Assembly (NCBI GenBank): GCA_016935525.1
Contig: JAFGQU010000007.1
Coordinates: 9,057-73,056 of the forward strand
Source of the DNA: Candidatus Omnitrophota bacterium
Lineage (GTDB): Bacteria; Omnitrophota; Gorgyraeia; Duberdicusellales; 4484-171
Reading direction: 5' to 3'
Length of the DNA stretch: 64,000 bases
The translations under genes were made by a program, and so were the position numbers. Under the pieces are notes generated by a model. The model did not search any database, was not told the DNA's origin, and was given only the letters and a program-made list of their open reading frames with translations. Below are positions 1,555 through 61,994 of this stretch, piece by piece (the stretch's first letter is position 1; every line of letters begins with the position of its first letter).

Positions 1555-2547
1555 ATGCAGATAGGTAATTTGAGACTGACTCTACCCGCTCTTTTGGCCC
1601 CGATGTCGGGGATTACCTGTCTGCCTTACCGCATGCTTAACCGCGCGTTCGGGTGCGAATGCGCGTTCCTGGAAATGATCAACGCCCGGGCGCTCCATTA
1701 TTGTACAAAACGTACTCATCAACTGATGCCCACTCAAAAAGAAGACCGGCCCCTGGGGGTACAGCTGTTAGGGTGTGAACAACGATATGTATGTTATGCG
1801 ATCGAACGGTTACGTGAATACCAGTTCGATATTCTTGATCTTAACGCGGCCTGTCCCCGCAGGAAGATCGTTACTCGTGGAGAAGGCGCGGCATTATTGA
1901 AAGATCCCCAGAGGTTACGGGATCTGCTTAAAGTGATGGTAAATACATCAACCCAGCCGGTGACGGTAAAGATCCGTATCGGTTGGGATGACGCGAAATC
2001 GGCCCGGGATATCGCATTATACGCGCAGGATTCGGGGATTGCCGCACTTTTTGTCCATGGCCGGACTTGTACCCAGAGTTATAGCGGTACGGTAGATTAT
2101 GGTGCGATACGGGAGATCAAAAAGTCTCTTCATATCCCGGTAATCGGTAGCGGCGATATATTTTCCGTACCACAGGCAAAACGGATGATGGATGAGACCG
2201 GTGTCGACGGCGTATTGGTCGCGCGCGGGGCTCTGGGGAATCCCTGGATATTCGCACAGTTACGGGCATTTTTTAAAGGTGGCCTTACCATGGGGTATCC
2301 GGAGATCACTGAAGTCGTCTGTGTCATGAAAGACCATCTGGATGCTTTTATCGCTCTTTACGGTGAACGCCGCGGGATATTGAAATACCGTAAATTTCTT
2401 ATATGGTATACCCGGGGATTTTCCCGGGTAAAACAGATACGGCATCGGGCGCAACAGGTCAAGACCCAGGATGAAACCGTAGCGCTTATCGAAGAGTTCA
2501 AAGGATGCGCCCGGCGTTACCCGTCATGCGTAACGCGTCCTGCGTAA
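1555..2547 (+). CDS. dus: tRNA-dihydrouridine synthase
   Basis: LAPMSGIT...DLNAACP...VKIRIGW...GNPWIF Dus-family motifs. Confidence 0.8.
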   Translation: MQIGNLRLTLPALLAPMSGITCLPYRMLNRAFGCECAFLEMINARALHYCTKRTHQLMPTQKEDRPLGVQLLGCEQRYVCYAIERLREYQFDILDLNAACPRRKIVTRGEGAALLKDPQRLRDLLKVMVNTSTQPVTVKIRIGWDDAKSARDIALYAQDSGIAALFVHGRTCTQSYSGTVDYGAIREIKKSLHIPVIGSGDIFSVPQAKRMMDETGVDGVLVARGALGNPWIFAQLRAFFKGGLTMGYPEITEVVCVMKDHLDAFIALYGERRGILKYRKFLIWYTRGFSRVKQIRHRAQQVKTQDETVALIEEFKGCARRYPSCVTRPA

Positions 2548-2574
2548 CGCGCGAACAGATTGGGAAAAAAAGAT

Positions 2575-2603
2575 TGACATATCGGGTAAAGAACGCACAA
2601 TAA
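2575..2603 (+). promoter_or_regulatory. candidate sigma70-like promoter (TTGACA-N17-ACAATA) upstream of small peptide ORF
   Basis: TTGACA at 2575 with a -10-like AT-rich hexamer at about 17 nt spacing; weak -10. Confidence 0.3.
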
Positions 2604-2622
2604 TACTATAAGGAGAAAGGCT

Positions 2623-2706
2623 ATGAAAGCAAAAAAGATCAACAAATCCACTAGATCCAAGAAAAAACTTTCCCGGTATTGCCGTTCGGGAAGAGTTCTT
2701 TGGTAA
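2623..2706 (+). CDS. 27-aa cationic peptide MKAKKINKSTRSKKKLSRYCRSGRVLW (candidate precursor/leader peptide)
   Basis: AGGAG RBS 7 nt upstream of ATG; followed by an 8-bp hairpin (GCGTATACT..AGTATACG) and then the rSAM-SPASM gene; too short for the ORF track. Confidence 0.4.
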   Translation: MKAKKINKSTRSKKKLSRYCRSGRVLW

Positions 2707-2793
2707 CCCGATTTCAGGTTACCCGCGTATACTTTATTTTTAAGTGAGTATACGTATATTTTCTCAAATTTCGAAATATCCGCTTCAAGTCCG

Positions 2794-4314
2794 ATGAATC
2801 CGCAGATAAACCTTACAGAAAAGGCTGTTCTTCCCGTATATCTTTTTACCCGGTTGGGAAAGTATATCGGTATTTCCACGTCTACCGGAGATTTTTACGA
2901 TCTTACTCCGCAGACCTACGCGGCATTGATGAAATGGAACGAAAAAATAAATTTAAAAGGTCCGGCCGTCACCGCCGATGACATTTCCGAATATGCGCGG
3001 GAATATTCTCTTCCCGAAGATATCTATCGGTTATTTCCCTTACCGCGAAAACAGCGGGCTTTTGAAGATCGCAATGCCCTTTCGGCGATCAGTGATATTA
3101 CTCTCAACTTGACTTCACAATGTTCTTTGCGGTGTGTGTATTGTTGGAACGATCAGGGTAAATATTCCAATACCGAGTTCCAACCCGATAGCGATACCCT
3201 GAAAAAACAGGAAGAGGTGAGTTCGGATATGTCGATAGAAACTGCCTGTCGTTCAGTAGATATGTTAGTAAAGTTATGTAAGGAGGATAAACAGCTGGTA
3301 GTCGATTTTTACGGCGGCGAACCGCTTGAGAATGTAGAGACTTTGGAAGCTACGGTCGATTATTGTCGCGAGAACGAAAAAAAATGGGGGGTGCGGTTTC
3401 ATTTCCTTCTTGCGACCAACGGCACTCTGCTGACGCCTTCGCTTGCAAAAAATCTTATTGATAAAGGAGTGCAGATCGCGGTAAGTGTCGATGGGCCGAA
3501 AGCAGTCCATGATAATAACCGTCCCTATGCCGATGGACGGGGCAGTTTTGAGAAGATCGCCGAGAATCTTAAAGGGATGGACGAGAACGTCAAAAAACGC
3601 CTGGTCGGCAGGACCACGGTCACGCCTTTTTTCAGTGATATGGTCGCTCTTTATAAAAATCTGCGTGATCTGGGATTTGAACGTATTGAGCTTTTTGAAA
3701 GTGAAGACGCCTGTCATAAGATCACTCCGCAAAGAGAGGCGATGTTTTTTAATACCGACAGCCAGTATGAGACGTTATTTAAAGAATACGAACGGTTAGC
3801 GTATCTGTATGTTGACGAGATCGTAAGCGGCCAGCTGGATTACCGTAAAACTTTTTTCAACCGTTTTTTTAAATTAATGCAACGACTTTATTATAACCAT
3901 GAAGTGAGCGGGGGGTGTCCTGCGGCAAAAGGGCAGATAGCCGTTTCCGGTGACGGGAACATCTATCCTTGTACTTCGTTTTTGGGGATCGAACAGTTCT
4001 GTCTGGGAAATGTCCATACCGGTCTCGATGAGCAGAAATACCGGCGGTTCATTGAGATGATAAATAACCGTTTCGATATGTGCAGTACGTGTGAAATATT
4101 CAGCGTGTGCCGGACCACCGGTTCCTGCCTGAACATGAATTACTATTTTAACGGCGATCCCGCCCGGTCTCATGAGCGCAGTTGCGATCTTTTCGCCGAA
4201 AAGCTCAAATTGGCAATAGCGACTCTGGCGATACTTTCCGATAAGATCCCCGATAAGCTTGACGAACTTTTCGGCCATGATCCGGTCGGCCGCCGGGGGA
4301 ACGAACTCTATTGA
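2794..4314 (+). CDS. radical SAM enzyme with C-terminal SPASM twin-cluster domain (peptide-modifying maturase family)
   Basis: CSLRCVYCW (CxxxCxxC) at about residue 110; C-terminal CPAAKG..C and CSTCEIFSVCRTTGSC Cys clusters; about 100 aa N-terminal extension before the rSAM core. Confidence 0.85.
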   Translation: MNPQINLTEKAVLPVYLFTRLGKYIGISTSTGDFYDLTPQTYAALMKWNEKINLKGPAVTADDISEYAREYSLPEDIYRLFPLPRKQRAFEDRNALSAISDITLNLTSQCSLRCVYCWNDQGKYSNTEFQPDSDTLKKQEEVSSDMSIETACRSVDMLVKLCKEDKQLVVDFYGGEPLENVETLEATVDYCRENEKKWGVRFHFLLATNGTLLTPSLAKNLIDKGVQIAVSVDGPKAVHDNNRPYADGRGSFEKIAENLKGMDENVKKRLVGRTTVTPFFSDMVALYKNLRDLGFERIELFESEDACHKITPQREAMFFNTDSQYETLFKEYERLAYLYVDEIVSGQLDYRKTFFNRFFKLMQRLYYNHEVSGGCPAAKGQIAVSGDGNIYPCTSFLGIEQFCLGNVHTGLDEQKYRRFIEMINNRFDMCSTCEIFSVCRTTGSCLNMNYYFNGDPARSHERSCDLFAEKLKLAIATLAILSDKIPDKLDELFGHDPVGRRGNELY

Positions 4315-4448
4315 TTCTGCCTCTTCGATGTGATTCCTGCCTTTTTCTGTGATATAATACTCCAACAACGGTTTGCGCGTTCGCCCGTACTCGCGTTTCC
4401 CGCCATAGGCGGGATTCCCGTTAGAAAAGAACGGGTACACGGGCCAAC

Positions 4449-5087
4449 TTGATAATTCATACGATGATACATGTCGAGTTTTTTGATTTAATAACTATTG
4501 AAATCCCTTATCCGAAAGTATATTCCCGTCTGGGATACGCCAAAGGTACGACTACGCTTACTTCCCGGCAAAAAGCCGATATCGAAAAGAATATAGATGA
4601 AGCGTCCGGCTATATTACGTTGAAAGGGGCCGGATGCCGTCTGGCGATCGAGCGAAAAGAAGAACACAAGGTCGTCCTTTCCGGGGCGATTGAATTTAAC
4701 AGCCAGGCTATCAGCCGGTTTTTACATGATTCTCAGGAAGTGTTGTTTATGGGGGCGACGGCCGGAGCTGATATTATAAATAAAATCAAAGAACAGGCGG
4801 CTCATGATAATGTGACTGCGGCGGTCGTGTTTGATGCTCTGGCAAGCGAGATGGTCGATGAAGCGCTTTCCTGGATCATGGAGTTTTTTGATTACCAGGT
4901 ACGCCGGGAAAACAAACAACTTACCCCTGGCCGCTACTCAGCCGGTTACAATGATTTTTCACTGGACAATCAAAAAATTATGTGTGAAACTTTACAGATG
5001 AGTGAGTTAGGCGTGAAATTGAACGACCATTATATCCTTATTCCGGAAAAATCGGTGACGGCGATTGCGGGAATACAACCAATATAA
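4449..5087 (+). CDS. standalone methionine synthase activation (AdoMet-binding) domain protein
   Basis: TPGRYSAGYNDF...LTE..LIPEKSVTAIAGI resembles the MetH C-terminal reactivation domain; immediately upstream of metH. Confidence 0.65.
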   Translation: MIIHTMIHVEFFDLITIEIPYPKVYSRLGYAKGTTTLTSRQKADIEKNIDEASGYITLKGAGCRLAIERKEEHKVVLSGAIEFNSQAISRFLHDSQEVLFMGATAGADIINKIKEQAAHDNVTAAVVFDALASEMVDEALSWIMEFFDYQVRRENKQLTPGRYSAGYNDFSLDNQKIMCETLQMSELGVKLNDHYILIPEKSVTAIAGIQPI

Positions 5088-5182
5088 GTCACATAGACAC
5101 ACGTCACACGACACACGTTTTTTTCTTTCACTTGTGACTATGTGACTTTGTGACCAGCTTGTCGATAGACAAGCGTGTGACC
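5088..5182. repeat. family A GTCACA/TGTGAC element
   Basis: octamer arrays plus central palindrome CTTGTCGATAGACAAG. Confidence 0.7.
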
Positions 5183-5189
5183 TTTTGAT

Positions 5190-7592
5190 ATGAAGTTAAC
5201 ATCGTTATTGAACACACGTATCGTTATCCTCGACGGCGCGACCGGAACAGAACTCCAGAAGTCGGGTATGCCTCAAGGGGTGGCTCCCGAGAAGTGGGTA
5301 TTAGAAAATCCCCGGATCCTTACCCGGGTGGCCTGCGACTACCGTGATGCCGGTAGTGACATCGTCTATACCTGCACGTTCGGTGCGAACCGTTATAAAC
5401 TCGCCCAGTATAAGATCAGTGATGTGCAAAAGATCAATACCCGGATCGCCCGGATCACCCGCCGGGCTTTAGGAAAAAACACCCTTATTGCCGGGGATAT
5501 CGGCCCGACCGGTAAATTTATCGAACCGTTTGGTCCGGTTCCTTTTGATGAAGCGGTTGCCGCCTTTAAAGAACAGATAAAAGGGCTGGTTGCCGGCGGA
5601 GTAGATCTTTTGGTGATCGAGACCATGATGGATATTCAGGAAGCCCGCGCCGCTCTGATTGCGGCAAGAGAAGTAACCAATATGTTCACCATGGTTACGA
5701 TGACCTATGAACGTGACGGCCGTACGCTCAACGGGACCGATCCGGTTACGGCCCTGGTGACCTTGCAGAGTCTGGGGGCACATGCCGTAGGCTGTAATTG
5801 TTCTACGGGGCCCGGTGATATGGTGCGGTTTATCGCACAGATGAAACCGTACGCGCGCGTACCGCTTCTTGCCAAACCGAACGCGGGAATGCCGCGCCTG
5901 CAAAAAGGAAAAACTGTCTTTGACATGAGCCCGAAAGAATTTTCCGGTTATGCCGGTGAATTTGCAAAGGCCGGTATAAACTTGATGGGAGGATGTTGCG
6001 GGACTTCTCCGGAATATATCCGGGAACTGAAAAAGCAGTTACGTAACAAAAAACCGCAAACCCCGCGCCGGTTTTTTTTAAGCGCATTAAGTTCTTCACG
6101 GACGCACGTGATCATTGAAAAAGATTCCCCGTTGATCATCATCGGTGAATGTATTAATCCTACCGGTAAGAAGTCATTACAGAAAGAGTTACGTGAAAAA
6201 AAGACGGCTCTCCTGCGTCAGTTAGCATCGGAGCAGGTCCGCCACGGCGCGGACATGCTGGATGTAAACGTCGGCGCCTCCGGTGTCGATGAGGCCGAGA
6301 TGTTAAAAGAAGCGATAAAGGTCCTTGCGGTAAATACTACCGTACCGCTTGTCATCGATTCTTCGGATATCCGGGCAATAGCGGATGCTCTTAAACTTTA
6401 TCCGGGCCGGGCGCTTGTAAATTCGATTTCGGGAGAAAAAGCGAAACTGAAAAAGATGTTGCCGCTCATCAAAAAATACGGAGCGATGGCTATCGTTTTG
6501 CCGCTTACCGATAAAGGGGTCCCTCATACTTGTCTTAAACGTAAAAAGGCCGTCAATGAGATCTACCGGAAGGTGAAAAGAGCCGGCCTAGCTAAAGAAG
6601 ATATTGTCGTTGATGCCCTGGCTTTGACCGTATCTTCGGACCGGCAGGCGCCCGGGGAGACGCTTAACACGATCCGATGGTGTCATGATGAATTTGATGC
6701 CGCGACAGTCGTTGGCCTTTCTAATATTTCTTTCGGATTACCGAGAAGGTCTCAACTGAATTCGGCGTTTTTGGCAATGGCTTCTTCCTGCGGGTTGACT
6801 ATGGCGATAGCCAATCCTTTATCGGAAGGGCTGATGCACATGCGGCACTCATCGGATGTGCTTACCGGTAAAGATGATAAAGCCGTCCGGTTTATCCGGT
6901 ATGTTCAGGAGGAATCCGGGGGTACCTCCAGTAAATCTGCTGCGTTACCGGCGAGTCCCCAGGAACGGGTCTATACGGCGATCCTTGAAGGGAACCGCCA
7001 GGAGATAGAGCAGTATATCGGTGAGGCGCTTAAGGGCGGGATTGATGCCGAAAAAATCATGCAAGAGGGGATGGTCACCGCGATCAATACTGTGGGAGAA
7101 TTGTTTGATAAAAAAGAATATTTTCTCCCTCAACTTATTGCTTCGGCAGAAACGATGAAACAGGGGTTCGAGTTTTTGAAACCGCATTTAAAAAATACTC
7201 AAGGCCATCGCGAAAAGAGAAACGTGATCATGCTGGCAACGGTAAAAGGCGATATCCATGATATAGGTAAGAATATCGTCGCGCTTATGCTTGAGAATCA
7301 CGGGTTTCATGTCATAGATCTAGGAAAAGATGTTTCGGTCGAGAAGATCATCAATGAGATCAAAAAACATAAATCGCCGCTTATCGGGCTTTCGGCATTG
7401 ATGACGACGACTATGGTGAATATGCAGGATGTGGTCGATGCCGTACGGAAAGAAAGCTTAGATTGCCGGTTCATTGTAGGGGGGGCCGTGATTACCAAAT
7501 CGTTCGCCCATTCCCTTGGTGCTGAATATGCTGCCGACGGGGTGGCCGCGGTCAGGGTAGCTAAGAGTTTAAGTGCCAGAAAAACAGAATAA
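5190..7592 (+). CDS. metH: B12-dependent methionine synthase (Hcy-binding, pterin-binding and B12-binding domains; no activation domain)
   Basis: N-terminal homocysteine S-methyltransferase domain, pterin-binding region, B12 motif DIHDIGKNIV. Confidence 0.9.
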   Translation: MKLTSLLNTRIVILDGATGTELQKSGMPQGVAPEKWVLENPRILTRVACDYRDAGSDIVYTCTFGANRYKLAQYKISDVQKINTRIARITRRALGKNTLIAGDIGPTGKFIEPFGPVPFDEAVAAFKEQIKGLVAGGVDLLVIETMMDIQEARAALIAAREVTNMFTMVTMTYERDGRTLNGTDPVTALVTLQSLGAHAVGCNCSTGPGDMVRFIAQMKPYARVPLLAKPNAGMPRLQKGKTVFDMSPKEFSGYAGEFAKAGINLMGGCCGTSPEYIRELKKQLRNKKPQTPRRFFLSALSSSRTHVIIEKDSPLIIIGECINPTGKKSLQKELREKKTALLRQLASEQVRHGADMLDVNVGASGVDEAEMLKEAIKVLAVNTTVPLVIDSSDIRAIADALKLYPGRALVNSISGEKAKLKKMLPLIKKYGAMAIVLPLTDKGVPHTCLKRKKAVNEIYRKVKRAGLAKEDIVVDALALTVSSDRQAPGETLNTIRWCHDEFDAATVVGLSNISFGLPRRSQLNSAFLAMASSCGLTMAIANPLSEGLMHMRHSSDVLTGKDDKAVRFIRYVQEESGGTSSKSAALPASPQERVYTAILEGNRQEIEQYIGEALKGGIDAEKIMQEGMVTAINTVGELFDKKEYFLPQLIASAETMKQGFEFLKPHLKNTQGHREKRNVIMLATVKGDIHDIGKNIVALMLENHGFHVIDLGKDVSVEKIINEIKKHKSPLIGLSALMTTTMVNMQDVVDAVRKESLDCRFIVGGAVITKSFAHSLGAEYAADGVAAVRVAKSLSARKTE

Positions 7593-8012: not shown

Positions 8013-9263
8013 ATGAATATGTATCTGGTCGTTATACTTAGTATTCTCATTGTGCATTATGGTCTTGATCTGATCGTCGAGATTTTAAATGTCCGGCATG
8101 TTTGTCTGGATGTCCCCCAGGAATTCAGAGGGTATTATGATGATGAGAAATATCGTCGTTCTCAGAAGTATCTGAAAGATCGTACGGTATTTTCCTTAGT
8201 GAGCAGCGGATTTTTTCTGGCGGTGACCATAGCGTTTATTCTTACAGGAGGATTTAACTGGATTGATCAGTGGGCCCGCGGTTTCGGACAGGGATCGATT
8301 GTGACTGGGCTTATTTTTGCCGCTGCTCTCTTTTTAGGGTTACGTATCCTTCATATTCCGTTTTCTCTCTACAGTACGTTTGTCATTGAAGAAAAATACG
8401 GGTTCAACCGTACGACAGCGAAAACTTTCGTGACCGATTTCATTAAAGATATCCTGCTTACCGCGGTTTTTGGTTCAGCGGTATTCATCGCAGTCGTCTG
8501 GTTCTTTGAAAGCACCGGACGGTGGGGCTGGCTTTATTGCTGGGGGTTTCTGGTCTTGTATGAGTTGTTTTACTATTTTATTTATCCGGTAGCGATATTA
8601 CCTTTATTTAACAAATTCATTCCGCTGGAAGAAGGAGAATTAAAGACTCAGATCGAAGAATACGCTCGTGACCAGCGGTTCGCTTTAGCCGGTATTTTTA
8701 CCATGGATGGGTCGCGCCGTTCGGCAAAAAGCAACGCGTTTTTCACGGGTTTTGGAAAATTCCGACGCATCGCTTTATTCGATACCCTGATCAAACAGCA
8801 TACGACTGAAGAACTTGTCTCGGTGTTAGCCCATGAGATCGGACATTACAAGAAAAAGCATATTTTAAAACACATCGGGCTATCGATTCTTTCGATGGGA
8901 TTGATGCTTTATGTCTTGTCTTTTTTGATAAATAATCCCGGACTTTTTTCCGCTTTCGCTATGGAACAATTTTCGGTGTATGCCAGTTTGTTTTTCTTCG
9001 GATTTTTGTATGCTCCGATCAGTTTTGTCCTGGGGATTATGACGATGGCGATTTCCCGGCGTCACGAATACCAGGCTGACCGATTCGCCGTGATGACCTA
9101 CAAAAAACCTCAGGCGATGATCGATGCGCTAAAAAAACTCACGGTCGATAACCTTTCGAACCTTACTCCGCATCCGGCGAAAGTATTTTTGGAATACAGC
9201 CATCCGCCGGTGCTGAAGAGGATAGAAGCAATAAAAAATATAAATATAGGAGAAATACAGTAG
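8013..9263 (+). CDS. M48 family (Ste24/HtpX-like) zinc metalloprotease, membrane
   Basis: multiple N-terminal TM segments, HEIGHYKKKH zinc motif, downstream EYQADRFA. Confidence 0.8.
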   Translation: MNMYLVVILSILIVHYGLDLIVEILNVRHVCLDVPQEFRGYYDDEKYRRSQKYLKDRTVFSLVSSGFFLAVTIAFILTGGFNWIDQWARGFGQGSIVTGLIFAAALFLGLRILHIPFSLYSTFVIEEKYGFNRTTAKTFVTDFIKDILLTAVFGSAVFIAVVWFFESTGRWGWLYCWGFLVLYELFYYFIYPVAILPLFNKFIPLEEGELKTQIEEYARDQRFALAGIFTMDGSRRSAKSNAFFTGFGKFRRIALFDTLIKQHTTEELVSVLAHEIGHYKKKHILKHIGLSILSMGLMLYVLSFLINNPGLFSAFAMEQFSVYASLFFFGFLYAPISFVLGIMTMAISRRHEYQADRFAVMTYKKPQAMIDALKKLTVDNLSNLTPHPAKVFLEYSHPPVLKRIEAIKNINIGEIQ

Positions 9264-10368: not shown

Positions 10369-11652
10369 CTATCCTTTTAATTCAGCTAATCTTTTTTCCG
10401 GAAGATTTAACCCGCCGATAATGGTATATACTCTCAGTGAATCACGGTCATCTTCGTACACGCCGCGGTGAATAGTCGCCTTGCCGGTGATTTCCGATAA
10501 CACATCAAACGCATAGTTGATTCGGTCCTGCAGGCCCGATACGTTGGCCATCAGTTTTTTCCCGCCCACGACGATACATCCGGCTACTTTCGCGGTCGAC
10601 AGATCGAACCCGCCGGCAAGTAATGTCTTTTCCAAATTGTTCTTTACGGCCCGGGAGATGGAATAGGTGTCGGTGATCTGTTTTACCTTGGTAATACCCA
10701 TGATCGCGCATCCGCCGGTTTCGATGATACTCTGGTAATCTACGGTGTCAAATGAAGTATATCGGCTTGATTGCGCGCTGAGTTTGTTGAATATATCAAA
10801 CAAACCGGAAACCGTACTGTTGATGGTCGGCCAGAACGATTTCACGGTAAGGCCCGGATACAATTTGTTGATCCTTTCGTTATCGATGATGATCAGCGGA
10901 GAAAGTTTTCCCGCCTCGGCAAGTTTACCGAGATCGTTTGCGATCTTATACGCGTTCTTGGCGACCAGAGGAGAACTGGCTTCCCCGATGGTCGGTAACG
11001 TCATGATCGCCCCTACGCTTTTGTCGGGATTGGCGATTCCATTGTGGCGGGCGTATTTCTTTGCCGTTTCGATCAGTTCCAGCACGCCTCCCGAACCGGT
11101 CCCGCCGCCGGCTCCGAAACATACCATGATATGTTTCACGCCGGACGCGAACAGTTTACGGATGGTGTGCAATATCTCCTGCTGATATTTTTGTGCCGCG
11201 TCTTTTCCACGAGCCATATCTTTTCCCGCGCCCATCTCGCCGATATCCATGAGGAACTTCTGGTTTTTAGGGATCTCTAAAAGATCGAGATCATGATGGG
11301 ACGTATTTACGGCAAGCACTTTACGGTAACCCAGATCATAAAAAGATTTGACCAGTCTTCCGCCGCATTGCCCGGCGCCGATCCAAGCAAATTGAGTCGA
11401 GCCTTGAGTAATATCGATAAGTCCGGCTTCTTCTTTTACCTGCGGTTCGTACTGTTCAAGATCGAGAGTAGGGATCGCGGCTTTTTTTGACGGTTTTTTT
11501 ACGGTTGTTTTTTTTGCCGGAGCTTTCTTTTTTGCTTTCGCTTTTACTTTTTTTACCGGTTTTTTCTTGGCAACTTTCTTCTTAGCGGTTTTCTTTGTCG
11601 CCTTTTTCTTGATAACCTTTTTCTTCGCGGCTTTGCGTTTTGTTTTCGCCAT
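10369..11652 (-). CDS. FtsZ/tubulin-superfamily GTPase with tubulin-type signatures and N-terminal Lys/Ala-rich tail
   Basis: AWIGAGQCGGR (T1 loop), GAGGGTGSGG (T4), IIDNERINKL and TSFDTVDYQSIIETGGCAIMG (T7-like) align to FtsZ; about 60 aa KKxAKK repeat tail at the N-terminus; GGAGG RBS. Confidence 0.8.
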   Translation of the reverse strand: MAKTKRKAAKKKVIKKKATKKTAKKKVAKKKPVKKVKAKAKKKAPAKKTTVKKPSKKAAIPTLDLEQYEPQVKEEAGLIDITQGSTQFAWIGAGQCGGRLVKSFYDLGYRKVLAVNTSHHDLDLLEIPKNQKFLMDIGEMGAGKDMARGKDAAQKYQQEILHTIRKLFASGVKHIMVCFGAGGGTGSGGVLELIETAKKYARHNGIANPDKSVGAIMTLPTIGEASSPLVAKNAYKIANDLGKLAEAGKLSPLIIIDNERINKLYPGLTVKSFWPTINSTVSGLFDIFNKLSAQSSRYTSFDTVDYQSIIETGGCAIMGITKVKQITDTYSISRAVKNNLEKTLLAGGFDLSTAKVAGCIVVGGKKLMANVSGLQDRINYAFDVLSEITGKATIHRGVYEDDRDSLRVYTIIGGLNLPEKRLAELKG

Positions 11653-61616: not shown

Positions 61617-61774
61617 TCCTGAAAAATCTAATTCATAACATATTGCATTACAATTAGTTATATAATTTTACGCCAAATCTTGAAATTGTTTTCGAAATAT
61701 GGTATAGAAAAGGTGTAGCAAAATCTTGTTTTTAAAGAACTCTTGAAAATATGTTTTGAAAAAGGCAAACTAAG

Positions 61775-61994
61775 GGAAACCTTAGGGCGTCCGAAGATTC
61801 GGAATTCAACGTTGTGTTGATTTTGGGTCTCTTCGGACCCAGGAACCGTCCAGAACCGAATTTATTCTGGTTTTGCGGCTGGTTCTGGGCAAAGCTTAAG
61901 AGCCTAACGCCTTAAAAATTAAGGCAATGGTCGTCAGCTGCCAAAATGTAAGAAGAAGCAGGGATACCATAGCGTAAGGCTATGGTTTTTTTTT
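61775..61994 (+). ncRNA. candidate structured small RNA ending in a rho-independent terminator
   Basis: UUCG-type hairpin GGGTCTCTTCGGACCC, hairpin CCAGAACC..GGTTCTGG, terminator CCATAGCGTAAGGCTATGG followed by T9; no ORF. Confidence 0.35.

Follow-up and report, generated by a model that had tools for sequence, protein, structure and literature searches.

Does the radical S-adenosylmethionine (SAM) enzyme encoded in a 64,000-nucleotide stretch of a Candidatus Omnitrophota genome (contig JAFGQU010000007.1, positions 9,057 to 73,056, the whole of which is called the window here) act on the product of the 27-codon open reading frame (ORF) that precedes its gene? A sequence-only reading of the window had singled out this pair, a small cationic peptide followed about 90 bp downstream by a 506-residue radical-SAM protein, as resembling the systems that make peptides which the ribosome synthesises and which are modified post-translationally (RiPPs). 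The gene pair was as described: the spacing is 87 nt, and the protein has the Pfam Radical_SAM and SPASM domains and a CX3CX2C motif. We hold it very probable that the peptide is the substrate of the enzyme, because of the linkage between the two genes, a predicted RiPP recognition element (RRE) in the enzyme and loci in which the two genes converge. That the pair is a self-contained RiPP cassette of two genes, similar to SCIFF, whose enzyme would form a thioether between the invariant Cys and one of the residues in the RVLW tail, is the reading we lean towards from the sequence comparisons given below.

The linkage was followed in 80 loci taken around relatives of the enzyme, using one genome per species. 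Loci with an orthologous radical-SAM gene of at least 56% identity were called clade A (n = 39, window included), and those with 35-41% identity clade B. Absence of the small ORF beside orthologous enzyme genes had been named beforehand as what would count against the pair. The ORF is conserved there, adjoining the enzyme gene in 38 of the 39 clade A loci, 33 times just upstream on the same strand and five times tail-to-tail just downstream. The sole locus without an RVLW-type ORF within 6 kb on either side is L018:5959-7503, an orthologous radical-SAM gene (61% identity); its peptide gene may lie elsewhere in the genome, or the enzyme may be an orphan. All ten clade B loci for which upstream DNA was available have the peptide, as do all four intermediate relatives (43-49% identity) that were looked up. 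Two of these, at 48-49%, have MLRRINVSGLRRKRLSRFCRSGRVLW-like peptides, and the peptides of the other two, at 43-44%, are of the clade B type.

The reverse test did not use the enzyme. A degenerate DNA pattern for R-Y-C-R-S-G-R-V-L-W-stop was run against a metagenome collection and matched 52 loci, about 40 of which were not previously in the set. A radical-SAM homologue adjoins the peptide in 52 of 52, lying downstream on the same strand in 51 and convergent in one. The same pattern gave no match in a viral collection. Across 94 distinct loci, the pairing recurs far beyond chance. Together with the tail-to-tail loci of clade A, the convergent arrangement is found in six loci, and the peptide must therefore act in trans.

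An identical enzyme is encoded in a Candidatus Omnitrophica metagenome-assembled genome (MAG), where its annotation reads 'radical SAM protein' and no more. Approximately 110 cluster representatives with 55-77% identity come from Omnitrophota and Elusimicrobia samples, and more remote relatives (36-51%) from MAGs labelled Patescibacteria, Myxococcales and others. The peptide core is unchanged while the enzymes diverge to 36% identity. The distribution of the cassette is patchy, and it has probably spread by horizontal transfer. On one Omnitrophota contig (L005:343-6819), about 3 kb separate a clade A cassette (...SRYCRSGRVLW) from one of clade B (...AAFCRCGRVLW), and two MAGs have two cassettes of the same clade each (JBAYMG01, L012 and L037; CAZDNS01, L041 and L044). 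From such co-resident cassettes, the clades appear to be non-redundant paralogous systems.

After removal of duplicates, 94 distinct peptide genes were collected from public genomes and metagenomes, and all end in C-x3-R-V-L-W-stop. Within their 74 distinct C-terminal segments, Cys, Arg at +4, Val at +5, Leu at +6 and Trp at +7 followed by the stop codon are found in every one; position +3 is Gly, Ala or Ser only, and position -1 is Tyr or Phe (Phe for Tyr19 in 14 of the 74). A second conserved motif lies further upstream, with Val, Ile or Leu at -14 in 64 segments, Asn at -13 in 63 and Lys or Arg at -12 in 64. Clade B has it in the same register (LLNR) as clade A, and this hydrophobic-Asn-Lys/Arg motif is the putative ligand of the RRE. 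Clade A peptides end in ...[KQ]LSR[YF]CRSGRVLW-stop, while clade B peptides read M[IV]RLLNRRKNRRxYRAAFCRCGRVLW-stop and have two Cys. Each invariant residue is encoded by 4-6 synonymous codons, which include both TCN and AGC for Ser, both CGN and AGR for Arg and both CTN and TTR for Leu; selection has therefore acted on the protein and not on an RNA structure. A Shine-Dalgarno-like motif is found 3-18 nt before the start codon in 101 of 101 peptide genes (duplicates included), most commonly as GGAGG, AGGAGG or AAGGAG. On these comparisons, the 27-codon ORF is a real gene under protein-level selection.

The N-terminal part of the peptide varies, with 0 to 26 extra Lys/Ala/Val-rich residues among the copies. 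A common 36-residue form has the KK[VI]NK leader motif duplicated (MKAKKVNKKAKAKKVNKTTKAKKKLSRYCRSGRVLW) and was seen at L009, L014, L016, L020, L022 and L032 and in many metagenome loci. A few variants (L008, L019) have long Lys/Ala/Val/Pro-rich extensions like histone H1 tails. Pfam and NCBIfam scans of five peptide variants, with E values up to 10 allowed, gave no meaningful match; the best noise was zf-CDGSH (E 0.04) and H1-like low complexity (E 0.3). The core also loosely resembles ribosomal protein L36 (C-R-x-C...G-R-V), a likeness that was set aside, as no profile match supports it.

Could the ORF instead be a cis-acting upstream ORF, which controls expression of the radical-SAM gene through ribosome arrest or attenuation and is no substrate at all? 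It lies directly upstream, stem-loops follow its stop codon, some of them strong and terminator-like, and arrest peptides too can show amino-acid conservation. The sequence-only reading had noted an 8-bp hairpin after the ORF. A hairpin is indeed present in the window, although with 7 bp (2702-2708 paired with 2717-2723) and straddling the stop codon, and a second one of 10 bp (2725-2734 paired with 2746-2755) follows on its 3' side; z scores against shuffled sequences are -2.6 to -3.5. Of 49 loci, 16 have a stem-loop with z below -2 within the 76 nt that begin at the last peptide codon, and the strong, terminator-like ones belong to clade B and Elusimicrobia loci. Neither the hairpins nor the intergenic distance are conserved, the peptide has a strong Shine-Dalgarno sequence of its own, as for a highly expressed product, and the enzyme has a predicted peptide-binding RRE. 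In the six loci with the peptide gene downstream on the opposite strand, control in cis is impossible, which excludes a purely regulatory upstream ORF; we regard this explanation as hardly credible. Stem-loops after the peptide stop in about one third of the loci agree with what is usual for RiPP operons, where precursor transcripts outnumber those of the enzyme.

Other genes of the neighbourhood were compared by all-against-all ORF clustering in 103 loci, and no further conserved partner and no recurrent protease, transporter or immunity gene was found. Since no other neighbour is conserved, the unit consists of two genes, placed in many different contexts. This result bears on another explanation, in which the ORF encodes an independent small basic protein, e.g. 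a nucleic-acid or ribosome binder, that is co-inherited and remains unmodified while the radical-SAM enzyme acts on another protein or a small molecule. The extremely basic composition of the peptide (MKAKKINKSTRSKKKLSRYCRSGRVLW; pI 11.6, 11 Lys and Arg among 27 residues, no acidic residue) would suit such a protein, as would the weak histone-H1-like matches of the variable N-termini and the lack of a protease or exporter in the cassette. Against it stand the strict two-way linkage, the lack of any other conserved neighbour as a possible substrate, and the peptide scans, which gave no significant match to Pfam or NCBIfam models, those of ribosomal proteins included. The RRE and an auxiliary cluster I with three Cys ligands also suit a Cys-containing peptide substrate. 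We consider an independent protein very unlikely.

The enzyme is acidic (pI 5.3) and the peptide basic, which speaks for the pair. Pfam places Radical_SAM (PF04055) at residues 105-278 (E 1.2e-12) and SPASM (PF13186) at residues 375-434 (22.5 bits, cut-off 21.5). The residues before the radical-SAM domain had been suggested to leave room for an RRE-like domain, and both a structural model and a profile alignment agree with this. In the AlphaFold2 model (mean predicted local distance difference test score, pLDDT, 85.6; predicted template modelling score 0.87) the region consists of strands at residues 15-20, 23-28 and 34-37 and helices at 39-55, 61-70 and 75-78, with a pLDDT of 89-97 over residues 11-80; an RRE is defined by a winged-helix topology of three strands and three helices (PMC6231123). 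A profile of 28 family members aligns with CteB (PDB 5WGG) at E 7e-67 over CteB residues 6-467, its N-terminal RRE domain included. The top Foldseek match of the model is also CteB, with a template modelling (TM) score of 0.72 on the query and 0.82 on the target over about 475 columns, at about 25% sequence identity; SuiB matches poorly (TM 0.48). The N-terminal 100 residues or so are thus predicted to be an RRE-type peptide-binding domain; a different fold in this region had been named as a second outcome that would count against the pair. No sequence match of this domain to Pfam PqqD was obtained.

Seven Cys of the SPASM domain align with cluster ligands of CteB. C375, C393 and C445 correspond to C344, C362 and C413 of CteB, which hold auxiliary cluster I through three ligands, and C430, C433, C439 and C464 correspond to C400, C403, C409 and C432 of auxiliary cluster II. 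The ligand assignment in CteB, with only three protein ligands on auxiliary cluster I, has been described previously, and selenium spectroscopy of PapB and Tte1186 has shown that the substrate Cys or selenocysteine binds an iron of this cluster before the thioether is formed (PMC10177961).

Among the NCBIfam models, the highest scores were obtained with PapB (NF047865, 229.4 bits, cut-off 340), QhpD (TIGR03906, 207.7, cut-off 453), the nif11-type maturase (186, cut-off 519) and the SCIFF maturase ScfB (TIGR03974, 180.4, cut-off 425). Each of these four families forms thioethers or is closely related to one that does. The ranking is the same for clade B and the outgroups. The anaerobic sulfatase-maturating enzyme model (anSME, TIGR03942) is far lower, with 76.6 bits against a cut-off of 349; the SPASM domain has seven Cys and not eight, and no sulfatase gene is nearby. 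Placement in a clade with a known non-peptide substrate, another outcome that would have spoken against the pair, was not observed: the nearest families all mature peptides or proteins.

The nearest outgroup radical-SAM/SPASM genes (30-33% identity) are those of L054, a Krumholzibacteriota MAG, and L055, an unclassified bacterial MAG. Upstream of each, at a distance of 380-560 nt, is an ORF of about 60 residues (L054:4795-4980; L055:5443-5622) with five spaced Cys, e.g. MQKKNINRCKNATQGDNCKSVVAKNSCTNADSRAGCQSGVQIKNIRKNCGSGVQRNYGK; these ORFs look like another unnamed family of multi-thioether precursors. Cys-rich ORFs beside outgroup enzymes are as expected for thioether peptides.

A single thioether between the Cys and the RVLW tail is proposed, on account of the families nearest to the enzyme, the three protein ligands of auxiliary cluster I and the invariant Cys. 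The part of the leader bound by the RRE would be the conserved hydrophobic-Asn-Lys motif, which precedes the Cys by 13 residues, and the Cys20 thiolate would bind the open iron site of auxiliary cluster I. The radical-SAM cluster would then cleave SAM, and the resulting 5'-deoxyadenosyl radical would take a side-chain hydrogen from one of the residues R24-V25-L26-W27. Coupling of the carbon radical to sulfur would give a single C-terminal thioether macrocycle, with a loss of 2 Da, on a Lys-rich peptide. Arg24 is the first-choice acceptor because the C-x3-R spacing, with its small residue at +3, mirrors the C-x3-D of PapB; Val25, Leu26 and Trp27 are possible alternatives. By analogy we infer a product of the ranthipeptide class, in which the Cys sulfur is joined to a beta, gamma or delta carbon.

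The main alternative is the same pair of genes with a different bond, a C-C link of the cyclophane type that ties an aromatic ring to the side chain of an aliphatic residue; other options are epimerisation or processing of the C-terminal Trp. The candidate partners are Arg24-Trp27 (R-x-x-W) and Arg18 or Arg21 with Tyr19, and the Cys would do no more than anchor the peptide to the auxiliary cluster, or act later as a metal or redox ligand. Arg24 and Trp27 are invariant, the Tyr or Phe is flanked by Arg, and the usual thioether acceptors are absent from the core. Known radical-SAM/SPASM bonds include Lys-Trp (StrB), Arg-Tyr (RrrB) and Trp-Arg (WprB) (PMC11851443), and in the CteB crystal auxiliary cluster I bound a leader Cys and not the cross-linking one (PMC6231123). 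However, the cyclophane-forming families YhhB, DynA and FxsB score only 89, 84 and 66 bits, against 229 for PapB, and the structural match to SuiB is poor. Tyr19 can also be exchanged for Phe, whereas the Cys is absolutely invariant. We consider a link of this kind rather unlikely.

Several observations weigh against the thioether cassette that we prefer. The type of modification rests on homology, and the enzyme is below every curated NCBIfam cut-off, so that transfer of a function is not licensed. The sequence-only reading had expected unusual cross-link chemistry, rightly in that the core has a single Cys and none of the acceptors of the characterised relatives, neither Asp or Glu (PapB, QhpD) nor Thr (CteB). 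It also contains Arg...Trp and Arg-Tyr pairs, which other radical-SAM enzymes join through carbon. Clade A has a further, near-invariant Cys307 in the enzyme, which could be a fourth ligand of auxiliary cluster I or a catalytic residue. Finally, the L018 orthologue has no peptide gene within 6 kb, and the cassette is confined to a limited set of genomes, so that any cellular role would be accessory.

Genes for export, proteolysis or immunity are absent from the cassette. Because the core is invariant across phyla and the cassette is without protease or exporter, a fixed cellular or signalling target, as for SCIFF, is more likely than a diversifying bacteriocin, and the profile of the peptide is closer to SCIFF or the peptide-derived cofactors than to diversifying bacteriocins. 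An invariant core across enzymes diverged to 36% identity points to a conserved molecular target, and the same question surrounds SCIFF. A more far-reaching proposal, which we regard as a long shot, is that the RVLW tail takes part in a radical-SAM cross-link that has not been described (Cys-Trp or Cys-Arg), and that the peptide is a conserved intracellular effector or a redox cofactor, like cysteine tryptophylquinone (CTQ), pyrroloquinoline quinone (PQQ) or mycofactocin, and not an antibiotic, in Omnitrophota, Elusimicrobiota and other uncultured anaerobes, with further tailoring by a B12-binding radical-SAM enzyme in some lineages.

The features of the locus are collected in the table. A promoter-like TTGACA element had been reported upstream of the ORF, along with a ribosome-binding site of its own; both are present, the former with CACAAT at 16-nt spacing. 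This candidate agrees with the consensus at 10 of 12 positions and is the top-ranking site within 2300-5300, as a consensus match only. It is located downstream of dusB, which stops at 2547, and is the putative promoter of the cassette. An Rfam scan of the whole window gave no RNA family match at 2550-2800, and a known riboswitch or small RNA at the locus was rejected on this ground. The genes flanking the cassette encode a gloB-like hydrolase, DusB, a TM0269-like partner of MetH, MetH, an M48 peptidase and GpmA; in this annotation no sulfatase, pqq or mft genes are nearby, as had been stated from the sequence. The GC content of the cassette equals that of its flanks, and the composition profile is without an island-type anomaly.

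Table. Coordinates of the features of the cassette in the window, and of one additional gene in locus L012.
Feature	Position	Strand	Remarks
Candidate sigma-70-like promoter	2574..2601	+	TTGACA 2574-2579, 16-nt spacer, CACAAT 2596-2601
Shine-Dalgarno sequence AAGGAG	2610..2615	+	7 nt before peptide ATG
Probable precursor peptide gene, 27 aa	2623..2706	+	MKAKKINKSTRSKKKLSRYCRSGRVLW
Putative leader recognition motif K-I-N-K	2635..2646	+	hydrophobic-Asn-Lys/Arg; Asn 13 residues before Cys
Core Y19-C20-R-S-G-R24-V25-L26-W27	2677..2703	+	C-x3-R-V-L-W C-terminus invariant family-wide
Two hairpins between peptide and enzyme genes, possible attenuator	2702..2755	+	function inferred
Predicted radical SAM/SPASM peptide maturase gene, 506 aa	2794..4314	+	87 nt downstream of peptide stop
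Predicted RRE-like peptide-binding domain, ~residues 14-80	2833..3033	+	AlphaFold2 model and CteB profile alignment
CX3CX2C radical-SAM cluster motif, C110/C114/C117	3121..3144	+	invariant in 28/28 sequences
Acidic insertion directly after CX3CX2C, residues 119-146	3148-3231		pLDDT < 50; absent from CteB
ESEDACH insertion with extra Cys307, residues 302-308	3697-3717		in clade A, not clade B; absent from CteB
SPASM domain, seven invariant Cys	3916..4185	+	aligned to CteB ligands
C-terminal tail DPVGRRGNxLY, residues 492-506	4267-4311		conserved; absent from CteB
B12-binding radical-SAM gene (example)	L012:7515-9074		directly downstream of SPASM gene, same strand

The next most common neighbour family in the clustering is a B12-binding radical-SAM protein, found in 15 of the 103 loci: clade A loci L002, L007, L012, L014, L016, L019, L020, L038, L085, L093, L098, L119 and L130, and clade B loci L048 and L050. 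In these 15, out of about 92 loci, its gene directly follows the SPASM gene on the same strand. The protein has 519-537 residues, and in L048 its gene overlaps the stop codon of the SPASM gene by 11 nt. The orthologues are 72-87% identical, with the SPASM genes of the same loci down to about 37%. The top NCBIfam match is BchE, at 190 bits and below its cut-off. As an optional enzyme, this protein could tailor the same peptide; tblastn found no match to it in the window. Isoprenoid or quinone-type genes follow the cassette in several loci, encoding a polyprenyl synthase or a UbiA prenyltransferase, and so do genes for a peptidase-U32-family protein and for further radical-SAM or B12-binding radical-SAM proteins (L005:2019-4940; L039 and L139, where the UbiA gene overlaps the radical-SAM stop codon; L137:2989-4467; L048:5718-9308). 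These may have a functional link with the cassette, e.g. prenylation or a quinone pathway, or may be mere neighbours.

Three other candidates were considered and rejected. The 212-residue ORF at 4449-5087, as a possible member of the cassette, is TM0269-like, precedes MetH and is not kept next to the cassette in other loci; the M48 peptidase (8013-9263), a candidate for the leader protease, shows no conservation with it either; and for a known defence system PADLOC gave only a weak, generic radical-SAM similarity to pVip (36 bits).

The window has some further features of its own. MetH is split, with an 800-residue MetH at 5190-7592 that is without the C-terminal reactivation domain. The 207-212-residue protein of 4449-5087 matches Thermotoga TM0269 (PDB 1J6R, E 5e-8), while its match to the MetH activation domain is weak and no Pfam match exceeds the cut-off; by sequence similarity it is a stand-alone TM0269-like reactivation protein that belongs with the truncated MetH. 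On the minus strand, 10369-11652 encodes a 427-residue protein of the tubulin/FtsZ superfamily with a TubZ-like C-terminal domain (Pfam Tubulin and TubZ-like_C), which scores 50 bits against the FtsZ cut-off of 295; judged by these matches, this Omnitrophota genome encodes a divergent cytoskeletal GTPase. The sole Rfam match in the window is a cyclic di-GMP-I riboswitch aptamer (RF01051) at 61754-61945 on the plus strand (37.5 bits, gathering score 35). It spans 192 nt against a model of 87 positions, and thus has a large insertion.

Judged from its sequences, the pair is a new precursor/maturase family inside the well-known radical-SAM-SPASM RiPP class, delimited by at least 94 distinct loci and two peptide clades with a common C-x3-RVLW-COOH end. 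In a protein database of 5.8 billion clusters, 26 clusters match the peptide, all unnamed or hypothetical. Most copies are 26-28 codons long, and the gene is a functional micro-gene largely missed by annotation. Full-text searches brought up no account of the motif, nor of a system of this kind from these phyla. The string GRVLW occurred in unrelated papers only, and no paper joined Elusimicrobia, radical SAM, SPASM and precursor peptide; for Omnitrophota with ranthipeptide there were surveys of biosynthetic gene clusters, by title, and a Cariaco Basin survey without a description of the peptide. The phyla concerned have almost no cultured members and no characterised natural products. Any bond formed in this core cannot be one of the links, Cys-Asp, Cys-Glu and Cys-Thr, that the nearest characterised enzymes make, and either a new thioether acceptor or a new cross-link would be expected.

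Five known systems were compared with the cassette. In PqqA/PqqE and MftA/MftC, too, a SPASM radical-SAM enzyme processes a tiny precursor whose C-terminal core is invariant, with an aromatic residue at the C-terminus or close to it, and their cores are conserved across phyla, as expected for a cofactor and as is also seen here. They differ in that the RRE is encoded separately, whereas here it is fused to the enzyme. None of pqqB, pqqC, pqqD, pqqF, mftB, mftD, mftE and mftF accompanied the cassette in the neighbourhood clustering, and neither MftC nor PqqE was among the top 25 NCBIfam matches of the enzyme. StrB/SuiB, RrrB and WprB also combine RRE, radical-SAM and SPASM domains and act on short peptides with Trp or Tyr and a basic residue in the core. 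Their similarity in sequence and structure is weak, and the cassette has no shp/rgg quorum-sensing context. The residue four before the Trp is Gly (...S-G-R-V-L-W), so that the peptide is no K-x3-W type, and the W-P-R motif is also absent.

QhpD is the second-best NCBIfam match, and the peptide shares with its substrate the invariant Cys and Trp. QhpC combines Cys thioethers with the Cys-Trp-derived cofactor CTQ. That substrate is an enzyme subunit of about 80-110 residues, compared with the 27-residue peptide here; the enzyme is below the 453-bit cut-off, and qhpA, qhpB, qhpC and qhpG were found neither in the window flanks nor by the neighbourhood clustering. PapB, the top NCBIfam model, forms the ranthipeptide freyrasin from PapA by linking Cys to the residue at +4 (C-x3-D), and the peptide has C-x3-R. 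PapA uses an Asp or Glu acceptor in six motif repeats; here there is Arg at +4, a single motif and no acidic residue, and the 229.4 bits remain under the cut-off of 340.

The closest parallel is SCIFF (ScfA/ScfB; CteA/CteB of Clostridium thermocellum; Tte1186a/Tte1186). Its precursor has six Cys in forty-five residues and is acidic or neutral, with a Thr acceptor, and occurs in Clostridia, whereas the 27-residue peptide described here has a single Cys (two in the clade B form), is polycationic, ends in RVLW without Thr, and occurs in Omnitrophota, Elusimicrobiota and other uncultured lineages; the window enzyme also has 180.4 bits against the TIGR03974 cut-off of 425. SCIFF is likewise a two-gene system of a short conserved precursor and an enzyme with RRE, radical-SAM and SPASM domains, with no dedicated protease or exporter. 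Its enzyme has the seven SPASM Cys in common with the one described here, and likewise three ligands for auxiliary cluster I; among solved structures, that of CteB is the nearest.

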